From a phage, in sequence record PZ347775.1: a DNA stretch of 64,000 nt. The stretch is one strand, 5' to 3'. The notes beneath the pieces were generated by a model. The model ran no database searches and was not told the origin of the DNA. It worked only from the letters and a program-made list of their open reading frames with translations. Shown here piece after piece: positions 3,955 to 14,330 of the stretch. Positions within the stretch are counted from its first letter, which is position 1, and each line of letters starts with the position of its first letter. The position numbers were made by a program, and so were the translations under genes.

Positions 3955-4272
3955 TTATTCTTTAGGGAAGTTTTTAGAATATGCATCATAAAGCTTATTT
4001 CCAATACGGCGGAAAACTCTAGCCGCAAAACGATTTTCTGGGTTTTTAATCATGATTTGCATCATATAAGTACCCGCGTCAGAAAGAGCTTCTTCATAGT
4101 ACCCGTTAATTTCTTTAAGAGTCCTACGTTTACCACCAGGACCATCAACAGTGATTTTCCATTTACCTGTAGAAGTGCGACTTGGCGGCTCAACTTGTTC
4201 AATCCAGATATAACCGCCTTCTACACGTTGTCCTTGGGCAGATTCTGCAATAAATTCTTTAAACGTTTTCAT
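3955..4272 (-). CDS. internal protein with capsid-targeting sequence (IPII/IPIII locus)
   Basis: N-terminus MKTFKEFIAESA; 105 aa; adjacent to lysozyme gene as in T4. Confidence 0.75.
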   Translation of the reverse strand: MKTFKEFIAESAQGQRVEGGYIWIEQVEPPSRTSTGKWKITVDGPGGKRRTLKEINGYYEEALSDAGTYMMQIMIKNPENRFAARVFRRIGNKLYDAYSKNFPKE

Positions 4273-4310: not shown

Positions 4311-4339
4311 TACTATCACAGTTCTAGGAGAAAGTAAAC
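4311..4339 (-). promoter_or_regulatory. putative early promoter upstream of internal-protein gene
   Basis: minus strand GTTTAC followed about 17 nt later by TGTGATAGTAT; same module recurs at 8.7 kb and 12.1-12.9 kb. Confidence 0.4.
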
Positions 4340-6159: not shown

Positions 6160-6533
6160 CGTGATTCCTTAACAAATTTCATAATTTCATCAAATTCATA
6201 CGCAGCAAGTTTAAGCTGATGTTCCTTTTTAATCTTTTTACACTGTGCTTTCCAATCACGTACGCGTTTACGATAATGCCTTCCTTGATACCAGTATCCT
6301 ACCCAATTTACAGGTACTAATAAAAGTGGAACTATTAATGGAAGAATTAGCATTAACACAAGTATTTCGCCAGAATCAATATCAGTCATAACATCTAAAA
6401 CACCTCCAATAATCAATAGAATTACAAATGATATGAGTATAACAGGACCTATTAATACATCAGTAGGAATTAGCTGGCGCTTTAATTCATACTTCAACGG
6501 TTTACTTGGAAGGTATAGTGATGGTTTTGACAT
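6141..6533 (-). CDS. small membrane protein
   Basis: start set at ATG 6533 (MSKPSLY) with AAGGAA SD; ORF-track start at 6554 is TTG; hydrophobic core. Confidence 0.5.
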   Translation of the reverse strand: MSKPSLYLPSKPLKYELKRQLIPTDVLIGPVILISFVILLIIGGVLDVMTDIDSGEILVLMLILPLIVPLLLVPVNWVGYWYQGRHYRKRVRDWKAQCKKIKKEHQLKLAAYEFDEIMKFVKESRCKSQN

Positions 6534-8700: not shown

Positions 8701-8737
8701 TAGTTGTATAGTACCACGGAAAAACATGGATGTAAAC
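8701..8737 (-). promoter_or_regulatory. putative early promoter module
   Basis: minus strand GTTTAC then GGTACTATAC; shares the GATAG..GTAAAC module seen at 12.1-12.9 kb. Confidence 0.35.
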
Positions 8738-8865
8738 AGTTTTGTGAAAAAATTTTAAAAAGTTTTAGGGAATTCTAGGGAAGGGATGGGCAATTAAAGG
8801 ATAGGATAATATATTATAAAGGGTATAAACTAAATGATGCCTAGAGAGGCGCGGAAAGGCCTAGA

Positions 8866-8897
8866 TACCAAAAAGCCCCAACCTTTTGGTCGGGGTT
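8866..8897 (-). terminator. rho-independent terminator-like hairpin
   Basis: GC stem-loop CCCCAACC-TTTT-GGTCGGGG followed by T-run on minus strand; near-identical copy at 9421-9451. Confidence 0.5.
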
Positions 8898-8904
8898 AAG
8901 AATG

Positions 8905-9378
8905 TTATTTGATTTGTTTAGCAGACCAAATGCGGTCTTTAATAATTTTTTGGATGTCTTCAACATACTCAAGAGAGTGAACATGTGGATTATCTTTGAA
9001 ACTATAGGCACGGGCTAACTTTTGGCCTTCGGTTTTGATTACTAAAAGCTCTTTAAGGATAGCTTCATACTTAGCGATAATTCCTTTAACAATATTTTTT
9101 TCTTGTGTAGCTTTAGGATCTGCTTTAGGAGCAGGTTTACCCGAAGCCTTTGCAAAAGCAGCACCAGTAGCAACTAAACTTTTCCAGGCCATACTAACCG
9201 CATTTCCCGTAAATCCTTCGGCTTTCATATCACGAGCAAATTGGAATCGTGATTCATCGGAAGCATCTTTATAGGAATATTTACCCGCGGCAATGGCAGC
9301 TTTTGCAACAGCTTGAATTTCAGTGCTAGATGCTTCATTTAACACCGCTTCATTTAAAAATTGAGCATATGATTTCAT
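8905..9378 (-). CDS. hypothetical protein with capsid-targeting-like leader (candidate internal protein)
   Basis: N-terminus MKSYAQFLNEA resembles the MKTYQEFIxEA leader; Ala/Lys-rich; flanked by twin hairpins. Confidence 0.55.
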   Translation of the reverse strand: MKSYAQFLNEAVLNEASSTEIQAVAKAAIAAGKYSYKDASDESRFQFARDMKAEGFTGNAVSMAWKSLVATGAAFAKASGKPAPKADPKATQEKNIVKGIIAKYEAILKELLVIKTEGQKLARAYSFKDNPHVHSLEYVEDIQKIIKDRIWSAKQIK

Positions 9379-9420
9379 CTTATTTCCTGTTTTAATTCGT
9401 GGTTTTAATATACTTATTTA

Positions 9421-9451
9421 TACTAAAAAGCCCCAACCTTTCGGTCGGGGC
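9421..9451 (-). terminator. rho-independent terminator-like hairpin
   Basis: GCCCCAACC-TTTC-GGTCGGGGC followed by TTTTT on minus strand. Confidence 0.5.
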
Positions 9452-9455
9452 TAAG

Positions 9456-10130: not shown

Positions 10131-10206
10131 TGGTCGAGGCAGTAGGGATCGAACCTACGACCTAGGACTTAGAAGGTCCTTGCTCTTCCTTCTGAGCTAT
10201 GCCCCG
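10131..10206 (-). tRNA. tRNA-Arg (anticodon UCU)
   Basis: hand-folded cloverleaf; anticodon loop CUUCUAA, T-loop UUCGAUC, 7-bp acceptor stem, CCA encoded. Confidence 0.85.
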
Positions 10207-10210
10207 TAAT

Positions 10211-10286
10211 TGGGGTGACCGATGGGAGTCGAACCCATGACTACGAGAATCACAATCTCGAGTTCTACCAACTGAACTACGGCCAC
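10211..10286 (-). tRNA. tRNA-His (anticodon GUG)
   Basis: anticodon loop UUGUGAU, discriminator C73 typical of tRNA-His, T-loop UUCGACU, CCA encoded. Confidence 0.75.
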
Positions 10287-10400
10287 ATTAATACCTACTC
10301 CAACAATCAAGATGTCTTCACACGAAATTAAGAGAAGAGTGATCAGTTCAACCCCGATAATCGCGTCAAGTAGATATTAATGTGACAGTTGTCACAAATT

Positions 10401-10475
10401 TGGCGGACGTGATAGGATTCGAACCTATAACCAATCGCTTAACAGGCGATCGCTCTGCCATTGAGCTACACATCC
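10401..10475 (-). tRNA. tRNA-Asn (anticodon GUU)
   Basis: anticodon loop CUGUUAA, D-stem GCUC/GAGC, T-loop UUCGAAU, discriminator G, CCA encoded. Confidence 0.8.
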
Positions 10476-10479
10476 AAAT

Positions 10480-10566
10480 TGGTGGGGAGTGATGGAGTCG
10501 AACCACCCGAGTCGCAATGACAATGGATTTACAGTCCACACCGCTACCTCTACGGGATAACTCCCC
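10480..10566 (-). tRNA. tRNA-Tyr (anticodon GUA)
   Basis: 87 nt with long variable arm; anticodon loop CUGUAAA; discriminator A; perfect 7-bp acceptor stem. Confidence 0.75.
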
Positions 10567-10579
10567 TTAATTCTTAATT

Positions 10580-10654
10580 TGGTGGCCCTGGGTGGAATTG
10601 AACCACCATCTGGCGATTATGAGTCGCTTGCTTGAACCTTCCAGCTACAGGGCC
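10580..10654 (-). tRNA. tRNA with anticodon CAU (Ile2-type as in T4, or Met)
   Basis: anticodon loop CUCAUAA; T-loop UUCAAUU; perfect acceptor stem; D-stem only 3 bp. Confidence 0.7.
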
Positions 10655-10655
10655 T

Positions 10656-10731
10656 TGGTGCTGATTGACGGAATCGAACCGCCGACCTTCTCATTACAAG
10701 TGAGTTGCTCTACCTACTGAGCTAAATCAGC
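10656..10731 (-). tRNA. tRNA-Thr (anticodon UGU)
   Basis: anticodon loop CUUGUAA; D-stem GCUC/GAGC; T-loop UUCGAUU; CCA encoded. Confidence 0.85.
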
Positions 10732-10736
10732 AAAAC

Positions 10737-10826
10737 TGGCGGAGGCGATAGGATTTGAACCTATGAGTCGCCGGAGCGACTGCCGGTTTTCAAGACCGGT
10801 GCATTAAACCACTCTGCCACGCCTCC
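10737..10826 (-). tRNA. tRNA-Ser (anticodon UGA)
   Basis: 90 nt, long variable arm GUCGC/GCGAC; anticodon loop CUUGAAA; CCA encoded. Confidence 0.85.
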
Positions 10827-10828
10827 AG

Positions 10829-10902
10829 TCTCCATACAAGGATTTGAACCTTGGACCTCCTGATCCCAAATCAGGCGCTCTACCAAACTGAGCTACACGG
10901 AG
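10829..10902 (-). tRNA. tRNA-Pro (anticodon UGG)
   Basis: anticodon loop UUUGGGA; T-loop UUCAAAU; CCA not encoded, abuts tRNA-Ser (T4-style Pro-Ser dimer). Confidence 0.8.
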
Positions 10903-10912
10903 TAAATTAAAT

Positions 10913-10986
<74 letters not shown>

Positions 10987-10991
10987 AAATT

Positions 10992-11078
10992 TGGTGCGAG
11001 AAGTGGGACTCGAACCCACAAGGAAATCATTCCGCAGCATTTTAAGTGCTGTGCCTTTACCAATTTGACCATTCTCGC
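10992..11078 (-). tRNA. tRNA-Leu (anticodon UAA)
   Basis: 87 nt with long variable arm; anticodon loop CUUAAAA; T-loop UUCGAGU. Confidence 0.85.
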
Positions 11079-11079
11079 G

Positions 11080-11152
11080 CTGGGAATAAAGGACTCGAAC
11101 CTTTGCATCCTGGAATCAAAATCCAGTGCCTTACCAACTTGGCTAATTCCCA
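11080..11152 (-). tRNA. tRNA-Gln (anticodon UUG)
   Basis: anticodon loop UUUUGAU; perfect acceptor stem UGGGAAU/AUUCCCA; discriminator G; CCA not encoded. Confidence 0.8.
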
Positions 11153-11249
11153 ATTATTAACAAAGGCTCTCAAGCAAGAACCCTTGATGATAGAGGGTAT
11201 TAATCAGTGCGATATGAGTTAATAATAACAAATAATTCTTAAAGCATAT

Positions 11250-11537
11250 TTACCATTTATGATAATACATATTTATGATGCATTCAAGACCCAAAGGATT
11301 CTTGAAAATATCATATTCAAGAGGACCTTTTTCTGTTTCAATAAAGAAATCAAAGTTAACTGTATTAAATTTACGATCTTCCTTTACTAATTTAACCTGC
11401 GAAGATGAACGATCAATGTAAACCTTTTCAACTTCAAAACATGTTAAAATGCCATAATCATTAATCAAGGCTTTAGCTGCTTCTTGATCATATTTATATC
11501 CATTTTCAACAGACGATACTTTTGCATAAAGAATCAT
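11250..11537 (-). CDS. hypothetical protein
   Basis: 95 aa ORF between ipI locus and tRNA array. Confidence 0.5.
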   Translation of the reverse strand: MILYAKVSSVENGYKYDQEAAKALINDYGILTCFEVEKVYIDRSSSQVKLVKEDRKFNTVNFDFFIETEKGPLEYDIFKNPLGLECIINMYYHKW

Positions 11538-11539
11538 TA

Positions 11540-11944
11540 TTAACCTTTATCAACAATAGTGTGAGTATGGACATTTACAATTTGCCACCAATCGAAACTA
11601 TCGCCAAATCGTTTTGATTTATTGTCTTCAATAATTTGACGTAATTCATCTTCTGTTTCAGCATACGCAATCAAATCATCATATCCACCGCAAGGATAAT
11701 AATTATCGCCTGCAAACAAAAGAAAATTTACTTTAGATGGGTCTACATAATAATGCTCTTTAGGATATTTAGTTCCTTTCCAATCAGTTACTTCAACATA
11801 ACGGTAAGAAAATCCATTTTTACTTTCAACCCAACTCCACGCTTCAAAAGGAGTATTAAAAACTCTATCAGGTATTAAATTACCTTCAAAATGAGAAGGA
11901 TTTGCATAATCCCCAGCATAAACATAATATTCGTTAATATTCAT
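11540..11944 (-). CDS. hypothetical protein
   Basis: 134 aa ORF, aromatic-rich; no recognisable motif. Confidence 0.5.
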   Translation of the reverse strand: MNINEYYVYAGDYANPSHFEGNLIPDRVFNTPFEAWSWVESKNGFSYRYVEVTDWKGTKYPKEHYYVDPSKVNFLLFAGDNYYPCGGYDDLIAYAETEDELRQIIEDNKSKRFGDSFDWWQIVNVHTHTIVDKG

Positions 11945-12130
11945 TTATTCACCTTTAGAAATTTTATCCATAACGATAGCAATTAAACCAATTAAAAATG
12001 CTACTACAAGTGAAAATACATTTTCTGCTGTAGTTAATAATCCGCATATAAATCCAACAAACATTGAAAAACTAAAAGCGGAAGCAGAAATTGCAATAGC
12101 AACATTTCGAATTAATTCACAACGTTTCAT
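11945..12130 (-). CDS. small membrane protein
   Basis: 61 aa, two hydrophobic helices. Confidence 0.45.
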   Translation of the reverse strand: MKRCELIRNVAIAISASAFSFSMFVGFICGLLTTAENVFSLVVAFLIGLIAIVMDKISKGE

Positions 12131-12156
12131 TTTATTCTCCTCAGTAGTTGATAGGG

Positions 12157-12188
12157 TAATAATATCACTACCCCATCTAAAAGTAAAC
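12157..12188 (-). promoter_or_regulatory. early promoter / stem-loop cassette copy
   Basis: minus strand GTTTAC upstream of GTGATATTATTACCC; inverted repeat GGGTA/TACCC. Confidence 0.4.
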
Positions 12189-12198
12189 GGTTTATAAA

Positions 12199-12507
12199 CT
12201 ATTTTATTCCGCGTGATGCAATTGTGTTCTGCCGTTTAACACCAGTTTGTTTAAAGTCATGATTGTCGATTTGATCGGTACGAGCAACACCGAATGATGA
12301 TTTAATCTTAGCTTTAGATCCTTTAGTTATAGAAATAAACATCTCGGAAGCCCCTTTCTTAAAGTCCGAGGCGATTACTTCAACGCCGTTCTTAGCAAGT
12401 GACCTCAGAATTGCCTCCGCGTACTCATCATCAAGACTCGCCTGAGTATTAATAACGAATGTCTTTGGTGCAGTCGCTTCATTGATAAATTCTTGATATG
12501 TTTTCAT
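12199..12507 (-). CDS. internal protein with capsid-targeting sequence (ipI locus)
   Basis: start set at MKTYQEFINEA; ORF-track start 12519 adds four residues. Confidence 0.7.
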   Translation of the reverse strand: MKTYQEFINEATAPKTFVINTQASLDDEYAEAILRSLAKNGVEVIASDFKKGASEMFISITKGSKAKIKSSFGVARTDQIDNHDFKQTGVKRQNTIASRGIK

Positions 12508-12539
12508 TTTGATTTCCATTTAGTTTTGTTTTGATAGGG

Positions 12540-12571
12540 TAATAGTATCACAACTAAACCACCGTGTAAAC
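12540..12571 (-). promoter_or_regulatory. early promoter / stem-loop cassette copy
   Basis: minus strand GTTTAC, 18 nt, TACTAT within GTGATACTATTACCCTATC. Confidence 0.4.
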
Positions 12572-12574
12572 AAT

Positions 12575-12847
12575 TTATTTTAAATAAATTGCATATTTTT
12601 TATAACCAGCCGTCTCGTGACGCAGACCTTTTTCATTAGCAAAGCGTTCAATATTATTAATTTGATTCTGATCAAGTTCTGAAATATCAAATACAAAAAA
12701 GTTTCGTTTATTTCCTAACGTTACATGATTCGTCAAATCAATGTTATAAAGATGATTTATATTATCAATCATAGTCTTAACAGATTTGCTAATTTTTACT
12801 TCTTCATTAAGAGCAGATTCAACGATAAACTCTTTGAAAGTTTTCAT
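12575..12847 (-). CDS. internal protein with capsid-targeting sequence (ipI locus)
   Basis: N-terminus MKTFKEFIVESA; 90 aa. Confidence 0.7.
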   Translation of the reverse strand: MKTFKEFIVESALNEEVKISKSVKTMIDNINHLYNIDLTNHVTLGNKRNFFVFDISELDQNQINNIERFANEKGLRHETAGYKKYAIYLK

Positions 12848-12867
12848 TTTATTTTCCTAATTAATTT

Positions 12868-12907
12868 TGATGAGGTAATAGTATCACTACCTCATCAACG
12901 TGTAAAC
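12868..12907 (-). promoter_or_regulatory. early promoter / stem-loop cassette copy
   Basis: minus strand GTTTAC; perfect 9-bp inverted repeat GATGAGGTA/TACCTCATC enclosing the -10-like GTGATACTAT. Confidence 0.4.
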
Positions 12908-12919
12908 AACTTTGTGAAA

Positions 12920-13616
<697 letters not shown>

Positions 13617-13617
<1 letters not shown>

Positions 13618-14330
13618 TATAGTACCTTTAGTGTATTTTTAATTTTAGAAAAAAGTTCTTCAAGAGAACCATCGTTTGTAATTACTAAATCGCCATCACG
13701 AATTGGCAATCCAGCTTCTGTAATATGAGTATCATTGGATTTTTGACCAGGACGAACTACATGAATTACTGTAGCACCCATCGCCCTAGCCGCATCCATT
13801 TCATGATCTTGACGAGTATCAGGAACGATATAATAATCATAACCTGAGTTAAATTTATCAAGATAATCTAAAGCAAATAATTTTACCCAATACATGCGGT
13901 CGAAGTTATTAACAATCAAATCCGTACCTAGGGCTTGCATCAGACGACGGACTGACCATTGATCTTCAATATTATTTATAACGTCAGTAATCTTGTTAAA
14001 TGCTACGAAATTAACTGCGTCATCAAAAACAAACACACCTTTAATTGGGCTTTTACTATTAAGATAGCAAAATGCTTGTTCCATAATCGTAATTACTTCT
14101 AATTTAGTCAGATTTAAATTAGTTTCACGATCATAGTCAATTCCTTCAAACTCTTTACGAGTTAAACAAGGATAGCCAGTGTTTGCTGCAAATACGCCCC
14201 ATGCATAAGCCAATGCATCTTTAATAGGACCAGCAAGTTGATATTTAACTGCAGAATAATTATTCATGATAAAATCTGCAGTAGTATCTTTTCCACTACG
14301 CTTTACACCACTTAAAAAGATTAGTTTCAT
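13617..14330 (-). CDS. 1: deoxynucleoside monophosphate kinase (gene 1)
   Basis: 237 aa, P-loop GVKRSGKDT; map position as in T4. Confidence 0.9.

Follow-up and report, generated by a model that had tools for sequence, protein, structure and literature searches.

The window analysed here, the whole 64,000-nucleotide stretch of phage DNA deposited as PZ347775.1, comes from a Tequatrovirus with 98.8% identity to Escherichia phage ECO07P2. The region of interest is the ipI locus, which is bounded by gene 57B (Acb1) and trna.4 and keeps the T4 gene order: 1-57A-57B-(IP genes)-trna.4-trna.3-trna.2-tRNAs. Two internal-protein (IP) genes and trna.4 each have one promoter module ahead of them, designated A, B and C in the order of transcription. 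These modules and the related elements considered below are all on the minus strand. The features are as follows, with CTS denoting the capsid-targeting sequence.

12920..13375, minus strand: gene 57B (Acb1 anti-CBASS phosphodiesterase; Pfam PF23474, E = 2.6e-60; T4 annotation), a conserved gene that anchors the variable locus on its upstream side
12848..12925, minus strand: module A, with the 57B stop codon, an A/T-rich upstream flank, promoter, inverted repeat and 5' UTR with Shine-Dalgarno sequence
12907-12902, 12886-12884 and 12883-12878, minus strand: -35 GTTTAC, TGa and -10 TACTAT of module A
12896-12888 and 12877-12869, minus strand: 9-bp inverted repeat of module A, GATGAGGTA / TACCTCATC
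12575..12847, minus strand: IP gene 1, 90 aa (phrog_7673 'internal head protein', E = 9.4e-56)
12815-12847, minus strand: stretch encoding the IP gene 1 CTS, MKTFKEFIVE; CTS-coding stretches form a repeat family
12508..12574, minus strand: module B, with -35 GTTTAC at 12571-12566, TGn, and -10 TACTAT at 12547-12542
12541-12533, minus strand: retained 3' arm of module B, TACCCTATC; its 5' arm is degenerate
12199..12507, minus strand: IP gene 2, 102 aa from the ATG at 12507 (phrog_2667 'internal head protein', E = 3.2e-42)
12475-12507, minus strand: stretch encoding the IP gene 2 CTS, MKTYQEFINE
12131..12198, minus strand: module C, with -35 GTTTAC at 12188-12183, TGn, -10 TATTAT at 12164-12159, and a 5' UTR with GGAG
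12177-12169 and 12158-12150, minus strand: inverted repeat of module C, GATGGGGTA / TACCCTATC, with one G.U pair
11945..12130, minus strand: trna.4 homologue, 61 aa, a predicted membrane protein and a conserved gene that anchors the variable locus on its downstream side

Judged from their sequences, the products of IP genes 1 and 2 qualify as internal proteins with an N-terminal CTS. A first-pass annotation of the window had already called them internal-protein genes, and matches to PHROG internal-head-protein families (E = 9e-56 and 3e-42) bear this out. Acb1, another counter-defence gene, adjoins the IP locus. In the 5' UTR of module B there is an upstream in-frame ATG at 12519.

The three modules follow a common plan of GTTTAC, 17 bp and TGnTAYTAT, with the TG of an extended -10 in all three. 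GTTTAC and TGnTAYTAT were found at each of the sites for which promoter modules had been proposed (12157-12188, 12540-12571 and 12868-12907). On the strength of this consensus match (TTTACA/T-17-TACTAT/TATTAT plus TG), A, B and C are predicted to be promoters. All three fit the PST/T4 PeSL promoter consensus, TTTACW-N17-TAYWAT, and their elements agree with the UP/-35/TGn/-10 layout given for early promoters of T4. The module upstream of T4 ipI is the same as module A except for 3 nt. The conserved unit is longer than a promoter and stem-loop, continuing through the 5' UTR into the CTS-coding stretch, the first ~11 codons of the gene.

Likeness among the modules is not confined to the promoter elements. 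With the -35, TG and -10 consensus set aside, 30 positions remain, over which pairwise identity among A, B and C is 57-70%; the corresponding figure against the window's four other GTTTAC promoters is 20-50%. The copies therefore align beyond the promoter hexamers, as the first-pass annotation had required of them, and the idea that they are alike at generic hexamers only is ruled out by these values. Whole units, including the CTS-coding stretch, are 60-71% identical over ~115 columns. Exact matches that A, B and C have in common are short (11-14 bp); patches of <50 bp have been cited as enough for T4 recombination (Arbiol 2010, PMC2839356). Within the 64 kb, exact matches to the 14-mer GTGATAYTATTACC occur at the three module sites only, and at two or fewer mismatches there are 8 matches compared to 0.91 expected, a number reached in none of 100 shuffles.

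These identities bear on the possibility that the promoter modules are passengers, which look alike through strong, extended constraint on T4 early promoters while gene turnover is driven by something else: the repeated CTS codons, illegitimate recombination, or transfer associated with homing endonucleases. T4 early promoters are known to share a consensus beyond the hexamers, and part of the conserved downstream stretch (CTATCAACTA) is also present at unrelated early promoters, both of which would suit such constraint. The excess of non-consensus identity among A, B and C over the other GTTTAC promoters argues against it, and the breakpoint data presented below bear on both sides.

Two further sites in the window had been put forward as related copies.

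8701..8737, minus strand: early-promoter-like site D, GTTTAC-17-TGgTACTAT, with neither arm and no hairpin
4311..4339, minus strand: early-promoter-like site E, upstream of an ipII-like gene (3955-4272)

The A/T-rich flank upstream of site D resembles that of module A (86% over 29 nt), its +1 region resembles module C, and T4 has homologous promoter-like sites at 70696 and 27080. Site E has the generic promoter elements in common with the modules and nothing more, and carries a hairpin of its own that is unrelated (z = -2.4). The proposed relationship thus survives for the flanks of D and reduces to generic features for E, and we did not retain either site as a member of the module family.

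The first-pass annotation also described the promoters as often lying inside an inverted repeat, which is correct for modules A and C but not for B (two of three). As RNA, the module A stem extends to 14 bp (12898-12867) and the hairpin folds at -18.1 kcal/mol (z = -4.8). The module C hairpin folds at -16.1 kcal/mol (z = -3.2), and RNA folding gave no significant hairpin for module B (z = -0.8). Among 67 unique cores from the related loci, 67% form a structure of -10 kcal/mol or lower around the -10, and at least 10 distinct stem sequences are represented. Because the registers of the stems relative to the -10 differ, we relied on per-sequence folding combined with an arm-swap permutation. Across 16 divergent representatives, the arms in their native pairing gave a mean of -9.7, compared to -5.6 (sd 0.66) for permuted arms, and none of 2000 permutations was as low. 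A fixed-register covariation score was 0.192 against a shuffled mean of 0.166, with 5 of 500 shuffles reaching the real score; with a single register imposed on all modules 59% of cells were paired, and slides of -3 and +3 were also high. The complementarity of the arms is under selection. Mismatched arms are frequent in recombinant modules and module B has no hairpin, and therefore this selection is not absolute.

In the classical view of PeSL elements, the stem-loop is a terminator or attenuator that shields the cassette from upstream transcription, so that each unit is a composite terminator-promoter. Hairpins that are intergenic, stable and under selection are in keeping with such a role, and a PeSL stem-loop from RB49/phi1 cut lacZ read-through to the same extent as a strong terminator. 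The hairpins at this locus do not resemble canonical terminators in sequence, as they have no U-tract: the 8 nt past the stems are A-rich (AAAACAAA, AACTACTG, AAAATTAA) and contain no U-run. A scan for hairpins followed by a T-run identified canonical sites at 9452-9429 and 8895-8876 and none at the modules, and an Rfam search of 11900-13100 at E ≤ 1 returned no match. The terminator view must also accommodate module B, which lacks the hairpin altogether. Moreover, IPs are virion components, and a strong terminator upstream of their genes would be counterproductive if late read-through is needed. We consider a terminator function unlikely.

The position of the hairpin suggests a different role. 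Transcription is predicted to start within the 3' arm, so the hairpin should form only in transcripts that read through from upstream; between the end of the stem and the Shine-Dalgarno sequence downstream there are ~20 nt. Most likely, the hairpin acts at the RNA level as something other than a classical terminator, and it may be a transcript-end or processing/stability element that insulates the cassettes from one another.

The inverted repeat could instead function as DNA, either by forming a cruciform or hairpin in which the -10 is exposed and promoter opening enhanced, or by serving as a target for a structure-specific enzyme such as endonuclease VII, thereby generating recombination hot spots. 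A DNA-binding recombination protein was indeed speculated upon by the PeSL authors (Arbiol 2010, PMC2839356). The -10 is always bracketed by the arms, 88% of stem pairs (429/487) are Watson-Crick, and module A folds well as DNA on both strands (z = -3.75 and -3.59). Sense RNA was more stable than antisense over the 67 cores (p = 1e-4), but not significantly so over the 16 independent representatives (p = 0.42), which, with relatedness removed, is compatible with selection at either the RNA or the DNA level. Against this, arms of at least 10 different sequences in variable registers speak against a sequence-specific binder, module C needs its G.U pair and folds poorly as DNA (minus strand, z = -1.29; plus strand, z = 0.01), and G.U pairs are commoner in the sense fold than in the antisense fold (58 vs 24). 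Extrusion is also inefficient for stems of 7-10 bp that carry loops of 4-10 nt, which weighs against a DNA-level function, and we regard it as very improbable. A broader version, in which the -10-bracketing repeat of many T4-type early promoters is a DNA-level element that couples promoter strength to cassette mobility, is a long shot. If true, the -10 would be single-stranded in the extruded or transiently melted repeat, which would contribute to exceptional promoter strength, and structure-specific nucleases would cut the extruded repeat to seed recombination.

About 900 INPHARED records match this locus. We compared the interval between 57B and trna.4 in 50 related loci. It contains 0-5 genes and spans 60-1921 bp, in agreement with the variable gene content that had been ascribed to the locus. 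Homologues of both IP genes are found at other positions and in other combinations in other phages; this particular IP pair with its three modules is common to ECO07P2 and other Tequatrovirus isolates. A promoter module precedes trna.4 in 46 of 46 loci. We then located the ends of high-scoring pairs (HSPs), which mark where homology stops and not where crossovers occurred, and which are not independent since the loci are related and paralogous cross-hits were counted; with that reading, 324 of 326 ends are in the modules, the CTS-coding stretches or the start of trna.4, and 2 are within the 463 nt of IP bodies (0 in IP1 and 2 in IP2). Six junction zones that make up 20% of the locus hold 202 of the 326 ends (binomial p = 1e-62), and 60 are inside promoter cores. 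The biggest peaks are at the CTS end and at start codons, and HSPs stop at the stop codon as well as at the junction between CTS and body. Thus, when cassette boundaries are compared with breakpoints, as had been suggested, homology is seen to break in the repeated units, with the gene bodies almost untouched.

The modules are themselves mosaic. Types of 5' arm, 3' arm and UTR are mixed in many combinations, with switches inside modules, and two 5'-arm types and two 3'-arm types are found in all four possible pairings. The trna.4 module of T4 looks like a B/C hybrid, its 5' half resembling B and its 3' half C. Two loci (L031 and L061) resemble the window minus IP1, as would result from a crossover between A and B, and in a third (L017) the core is tandemly duplicated (21 bp). 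An exact-core search of IMG/VR (13 stretches) showed that the core also precedes non-IP genes. Outside Tequatrovirus, 30 of 53 IP genes in T4-like genera lack a promoter module and show translational coupling through stop/start overlap, and these loci are equally variable. Because those 30 genes are exchanged without a module, the modules appear to be a sufficient but not a necessary vehicle, and the CTS-coding repeat, or some other mechanism, may be just as important.

The passenger explanation draws on these data in two ways: the module-free IP genes of other genera are swapped all the same, and the top HSP-end peaks coincide with the CTS end and start codons. It accounts poorly for sub-segments that have been reassorted within modules, for the ends inside promoter cores, for the tandemly duplicated core of L017, and for the hybrid module of T4 trna.4, a gene that has no CTS. 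On balance, it is quite improbable that the modules are mere passengers, and the promoter-stem-loop shuffling interpretation is largely right.

We conclude that the elements are very probably regulatory cassettes of the T-even IP locus that recombine to swap IP genes. Each unit would consist of a strong sigma-70-type T4 early promoter, an A/T-rich flank and a short 5' UTR that includes a Shine-Dalgarno sequence, and the units of IP genes would additionally carry the first ~11 codons encoding the CTS. Because a unit of ~70-115 bp is repeated before every gene between 57B and trna.4, the copies would present patches of homology in direct orientation, and the phage's own homologous recombination machinery could cross over within them. 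Unequal crossover within one genome would delete or duplicate a gene. Crossover between co-infecting relatives would replace an IP gene, and the newcomer would still have a promoter and packaging signal. As a result, the repertoire of injected anti-restriction proteins would shift. In this scheme, promoter activity is predicted from sequence and general recombination is the presumed pathway; a literature search for T4 transcription-start data at ipI yielded nothing usable.

IPs are injected with the DNA, and the characterised ones block Type IV (GmrSD-type) restriction enzymes. An IP locus at which genes are easily swapped is a toolkit for host range and counter-defence. The module and CTS-coding stretch could serve as PCR or search anchors for harvesting new IP genes, and as landing pads for cargo that is to be packaged and injected.

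PeSLs have been described in RB49/phi1, PST/T4 and nt-1/KVP40 (Arbiol 2010, PMC2839356; Comeau 2014, PMC4122927), and those of PST/T4 (Comeau 2014, PMC4122927) are the ones whose promoter consensus is matched here. Like the present modules, PeSLs are intergenic and combine a sigma-70-type promoter, a stem-loop and a Shine-Dalgarno sequence with start codon; their stems often overlap the -10, and they crowd plastic regions beside indels or replacements between close relatives. A stable stem-loop in or near the promoter is present in modules A and C and absent from B. In PeSLs, recombination between adjacent copies gives excised mini-circles. The published PST stems are described as lying just upstream of the promoter, whereas the stems here bracket the -10, and the present modules differ from PeSLs in having no U-tract. 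We found no homology to the RB49/phi1 PeSL, which has a near-perfect TTGACA/TATAAT promoter and a GGGG...CCCC stem, as the modules have GTTTAC and AT-rich stems with no polyG/polyC. This agrees with the view that the IP-locus elements are analogues, not homologues, of the RB49/phi1 PeSLs (Arbiol 2010, PMC2839356).

The arrangement also recalls Botstein-Campbell 'linker' sequences and integron-like arrays of promoter plus cassettes, in which short conserved sequences between genes target exchange and keep the newcomer expressed. In contrast to those systems, this locus has neither a dedicated recombinase nor an attachment site, and general homologous recombination is presumed. In the T4 genes e, soc, 49 and I-TevI, a promoter lies within a hairpin that read-through transcripts alone can form. 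The modules are similar in that the start is inside the stem and only upstream transcripts can fold. In e, soc, 49 and I-TevI, the hairpin contains a late or middle promoter and sequesters the ribosome-binding site; the modules, unlike these, have an early promoter and a stem that stops ~20 nt short of the Shine-Dalgarno sequence.

The closest counterparts are the T-even IP loci of Repoila 1994 (EMBO J 13:4181), which according to Arbiol 2010 (PMC2839356) contain PeSL-like elements with T4 early promoters and weaker, AT-rich stem-loops at two IP loci. As described in these later papers, they concern the same genus, the same ipI locus (57B to the tRNA region) and the same gene class, with the same architecture of T4 early promoter, AT-rich stem-loop, conserved first codons and then variable coding sequence. 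The window likewise has a polymorphic IP locus with CTS genes, a conserved 5' region plus ~11 codons and a variable set of IPs, and at the level of those descriptions we see no essential difference. The modular shuffling to which the first-pass annotation alluded has therefore been proposed for this very locus, whose units, on the later accounts, were described in 1994 and subsequently named PeSL-like (Repoila 1994; Arbiol 2010; Comeau 2014). To this established concept, we add a caution, namely that the stem-loops do not resemble terminators, together with quantitative confirmation on ~50 loci from breakpoints, intra-module mosaicism and arm covariation.

A search with window nucleotides 11200-13700 matched 894 phage records, the top match being Escherichia phage ECO07P2 (98.8% identity over the full query length) and nearly all of the others being Tequatrovirus and related Tevenvirinae. 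Every gene near the locus lies on the minus strand. In transcription order, the genes and the three early-promoter units (modules A, B and C) are as follows.

13617-14330, minus strand: gene 1, dNMP kinase
13375-13617, minus strand: 57A
12920-13375, minus strand: 57B, Acb1, anti-CBASS cyclic-nucleotide phosphodiesterase (Pfam PF23474, E 2.6e-60)
12848-12925, minus strand: module A, intergenic sequence ...ttcacaaagttGTTTACAcgttGATGAGGTAgTGaTACTATTACCTCATCaaaattaattaggaaaataaaATG
12575-12847, minus strand: IP1, internal protein (IP) gene, product N-terminus MKTFKEFIVE (PHROG 'internal head protein' family, E 9e-56)
12508-12574, minus strand: module B, intergenic sequence ...aaataaattGTTTACAcggtggtttagttgTGaTACTATTACCCTATCaaaacaaaactaaatggaaatcaaaATG
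12199-12507, minus strand: IP2, IP gene, product N-terminus MKTYQEFINE (PHROG 'internal head protein' family, E 3e-42)
12131-12198, minus strand: module C, intergenic sequence ...tttataaaccGTTTACTtttaGATGGGGTAgTGaTATTATTACCCTATCaactactgaggagaataaaATG
11945-12130, minus strand: membrane ORF, 61 aa, followed by two more ORFs and then 11 tRNA genes

The annotated T4 record has the identical order 57B, ipI, trna.4, trna.3, trna.2, tRNAs, and the modules therefore belong to a T-even ipI locus. IPs characterised to date block GmrSD-type Type IV restriction enzymes; because 57B is Acb1, the variable anti-restriction IP cassettes lie directly downstream of another counter-defence gene. The tRNA block differs in content from that of T4: the window carries eleven genes at 10131-11152 (Arg, His, Asn, Tyr, Met, Thr, Ser, Pro, Gly, Leu, Gln) and lacks segB there, whereas in T4 segB interrupts a set of eight tRNAs. 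An in-frame ATG lies four codons 5' of the IP2 start (12507-12519, minus strand; MEIK-MKTYQEF) within a 5' UTR of the 'L2' type, and recurs in many phages as MEIKMK, METKMK or MEPKMK. The capsid-targeting sequence (CTS) encoded by the first ~11 codons of IP genes argues that the second ATG is the real start, and the conserved upstream ATGGAAAYCAAA could serve in ribosome binding or regulation.

The first-pass annotation had placed promoter and stem-loop cassettes at 12157-12188, 12540-12571 and 12868-12907, and these coordinates proved correct: each module contains a predicted promoter with TTTAC[A/T], a 17-bp spacer, TG at -15/-14 and TAYTAT. The 14-mer GTGATAYTATTACC occurs exactly in the 64 kb only in modules A, B and C; with up to two mismatches it has 8 matches against 0.91 expected, and 8 was reached in 0 of 100 shuffles. 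We anchored all GTTTAC promoters of the window on the -35 and dropped the -35, TG and -10 positions. Over the 30 positions left, pairwise identity among A, B and C is 57-70%, compared to 20-50% with the four other GTTTAC promoters (8737, 8400, 4339 and 1314), so the three copies align beyond the generic promoter hexamers. When the UTR and the first 11 codons are counted in, whole units match one another at 60-71% of about 115 columns. Two further sites, 8701-8737 and 4311-4339, had also been proposed as related copies. Site 8737 has an upstream flank like that of A (86% over 29 nt) and a +1 region like that of C, but does not share the arms, while the likeness of site 4339 is that of a generic promoter and goes no further.

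The same annotation held that the -10 often lies inside an inverted repeat. This is borne out for module A (14-bp RNA hairpin, -18.1 kcal/mol, z -4.8) and module C (12 bp, -16.1 kcal/mol, z -3.2), but not for module B, which keeps the 3' arm alone and gives no significant hairpin upon RNA folding (z -0.8). The loci compared here hold 98 promoter modules, which reduce to 67 distinct 40-nt cores; 67% of these cores form a hairpin of -10 kcal/mol or below enclosing the -10. At least 10 stem sequences are in use (5'/3' arms): GATGAGGTA/TACCTCATC; GATRGGGTA/TACCCTATC; AGGTCTATAG/CTATAGACCT; GGGCT.TAG/CTATAGCCC; GAGGGCTAT/ATAGCCCT; GAGGGTTAT/ATAACCCT; GTAGGACTAT/ATAGTCCTAC; ATGGGATA/TATCCCAT; GATGATGGT/ACTATCATC; and GTGTAGG/CCTACAC. 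When 3' halves were exchanged among 16 representatives differing pairwise at more than 10 of 40 positions, mean energy rose from -9.7 to -5.6 kcal/mol (sd 0.66), and the real value was reached in 0 of 2000 permutations; arm complementarity is therefore maintained. A single-register covariation count gives weaker support (0.192 versus 0.166 shuffled, reached in 5 of 500 shuffles), and 3-column slides also score high in it because stem registers differ.

Repeats bracketing the -10 are not specific to IP loci: T4 has them at promoter-like sites before gene 41, motB and dexA, and the window has them at two other GTTTAC early-promoter-like sites. At 8400-8357 (minus strand) the arms GGCTCAT/ATGAGCC bracket the -10 (z -3.9), and at 1314-1271 (minus strand) the 3' arm reaches into the Shine-Dalgarno sequence. 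The bracketing repeat thus characterises a subset of early promoters in general. In five IMG/VR T4-like genomes (L039, L043, L047, L049 and L050) the 21-nt core also precedes non-IP genes away from the IP locus, as the exact sequence GTGATACTATTACCYYATCAA together with a complementary 5' arm of its own; among these genes, one encodes a 72-aa MAKVTVNST... protein and another a 200-aa MKTVTINKG... protein. The module family therefore reaches beyond IP loci.

Such units have been called promoter-early stem-loops (PeSLs), with the stem read as a terminator. The eight bases 3' of the stems are A-rich (AAAACAAA, AACTACTG and AAAATTAA), a terminator scan made no call at modules A, B or C while calling canonical terminators at 9452-9429 and 8895-8876, and an Rfam search of 11900-13100 returned zero matches, so the terminator half of the label appears unsupported by sequence for these modules. 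In module A, the -10 at 12883-12878 predicts a start near 12871, within the 3' arm; judging from this spacing, transcripts from the module's own promoter could not form the hairpin, and only read-through transcripts could. In a comparison bearing on RNA-level versus DNA-level selection, the sense fold is the more stable one for 50 of the 67 cores (p 1e-4), but the excess over the antisense is not significant among independent representatives (10 of 16, p 0.42). Stem pairs are 88% Watson-Crick, with 58 G.U pairs in the sense fold versus 24 in the antisense, and DNA folding is good on both strands for module A and poor for module C. Elsewhere in the window, two canonical intrinsic terminators of 36 nt (8865-8900 and 9420-9455, minus strand; 92% identical, GC-rich hairpin plus U-run) flank ORF 8905-9378 (157 aa, IP-like N-terminus MKSYAQFLNE, phrog_2280), an arrangement that resembles another type of cassette, with repeated terminators instead of promoters at its borders.

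Modules are themselves mosaic. Typed by 5' arm, 3' arm and UTR, Tequatrovirus modules combine these parts in numerous ways: 5' arm GTTTTAGTT has three different 3' arms as partners and is joined to four UTR types, three UTR types follow 3' arm TACCCTATC, and the 'trna.4' UTR actactgaggag is found before IP genes too. For two 5'-arm and two 3'-arm types all four combinations are present, which implies exchange inside the ~12-bp -10 core, unless the same changes arose by mutation more than once. In locus L017 (IMGVR_UViG_2706796299_000001, 6173-6251), the module before a 102-aa IP gene carries a tandem 21-bp core duplication (GATACTATTACCTCATCAA twice), which looks like the scar of unequal crossover or slippage inside the module.

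Gene content was compared across 36 IMG/VR loci (57B protein query), T4 and 12 INPHARED Tequatrovirus or Mosigvirus genomes. The anchors 57B and trna.4 were both located in 50 sequences, counting the window, and the interval between them spans 60 to 1921 bp and 0 to 5 genes. Relatives of IP1 and IP2 occur alone, in swapped position, beside different IP genes or fused straight to the 57B stop codon. In T4, module A precedes ipI with a 3-nt difference from the window, and the trna.4 module is B-like in its 5' half and C-like in its 3' half and UTR, which is what a crossover between B and C deleting the intervening IP gene would be expected to leave. The situation in loci L031 and L061 is comparable: to either side of IP1 they align to the window, and a stretch of ~100 bp in them matches units A and B alike.

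We counted the ends of blastn HSPs between the window locus and the 49 other oriented sequences within 12095-12925; such ends show where homology is lost and do not locate crossovers. From 48 of these came 326 ends. Six junction zones cover 20% of the locus and hold 202 of the ends (binomial p 1e-62; relatedness of the loci and the counting of paralogous hits make the ends non-independent); they are the stop codon/-35 of every module, the end of every CTS and the trna.4 start. Promoter cores themselves contain 60, and the gene bodies 0 (IP1, 214 nt) and 2 (IP2, 249 nt). In this comparison of cassette boundaries with breakpoints, which the first-pass annotation had proposed, the pattern is stark despite the non-independence: homology breakpoints between relatives fall at or within the repeated units, and IP bodies are nearly free of them (2/326).

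All 28 IP genes in Tequatrovirus-like loci have their own promoter module, and trna.4 is preceded by one in 46 of 46 loci, but only 23 of 53 IP genes in other genera do. The other 30 are translationally coupled (gap of at most 10 nt, often an ATGA overlap), and IP content is equally variable in those genera; thus, the promoter-stem-loop unit is not required for IP turnover. Just one repeat, the CTS-coding sequence, is shared by every IP gene. ATGA-chained IP genes with no promoter between them occur in L002, L007, L011, L013-L020, L022-L028 and L033-L036, all from non-Tequatrovirus T4-like genera, where the first IP gene frequently overlaps the 57B stop codon.

Together, the breakpoints and mosaicism support the proposal that these units mediate modular gene shuffling, with two qualifications: the stems are not terminator-like, and IP turnover in other genera does not require the module. 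The repeated modules, each with a predicted early promoter, are confirmed at the ipI locus and already known. T4 early promoters are described as of the UP/-35/TGn/-10 type with additional consensus regions (Hinton 2010). Arbiol et al. 2010 (PMC2839356) defined PeSLs in RB49/phi1: a sigma-70 promoter is combined with a stem-loop that often overlaps the -10, and the elements lie at indel boundaries and can form mini-circles. Their Discussion credits Repoila et al. 1994 with PeSL-like elements at the two IP loci, built on T4 early promoters and having weaker, AT-rich stem-loops, and regards these as analogues and not homologues of the RB49/phi1 PeSLs. Comeau et al. 2014 (PMC4122927) add PST/T4 to the phages with PeSLs, give TTTACW-N17-TAYWAT as the consensus there and also cite the IP locus. 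As these two papers describe the earlier work, the modules correctly rediscover a feature published before, at the same locus where it was first seen (Repoila et al. 1994).
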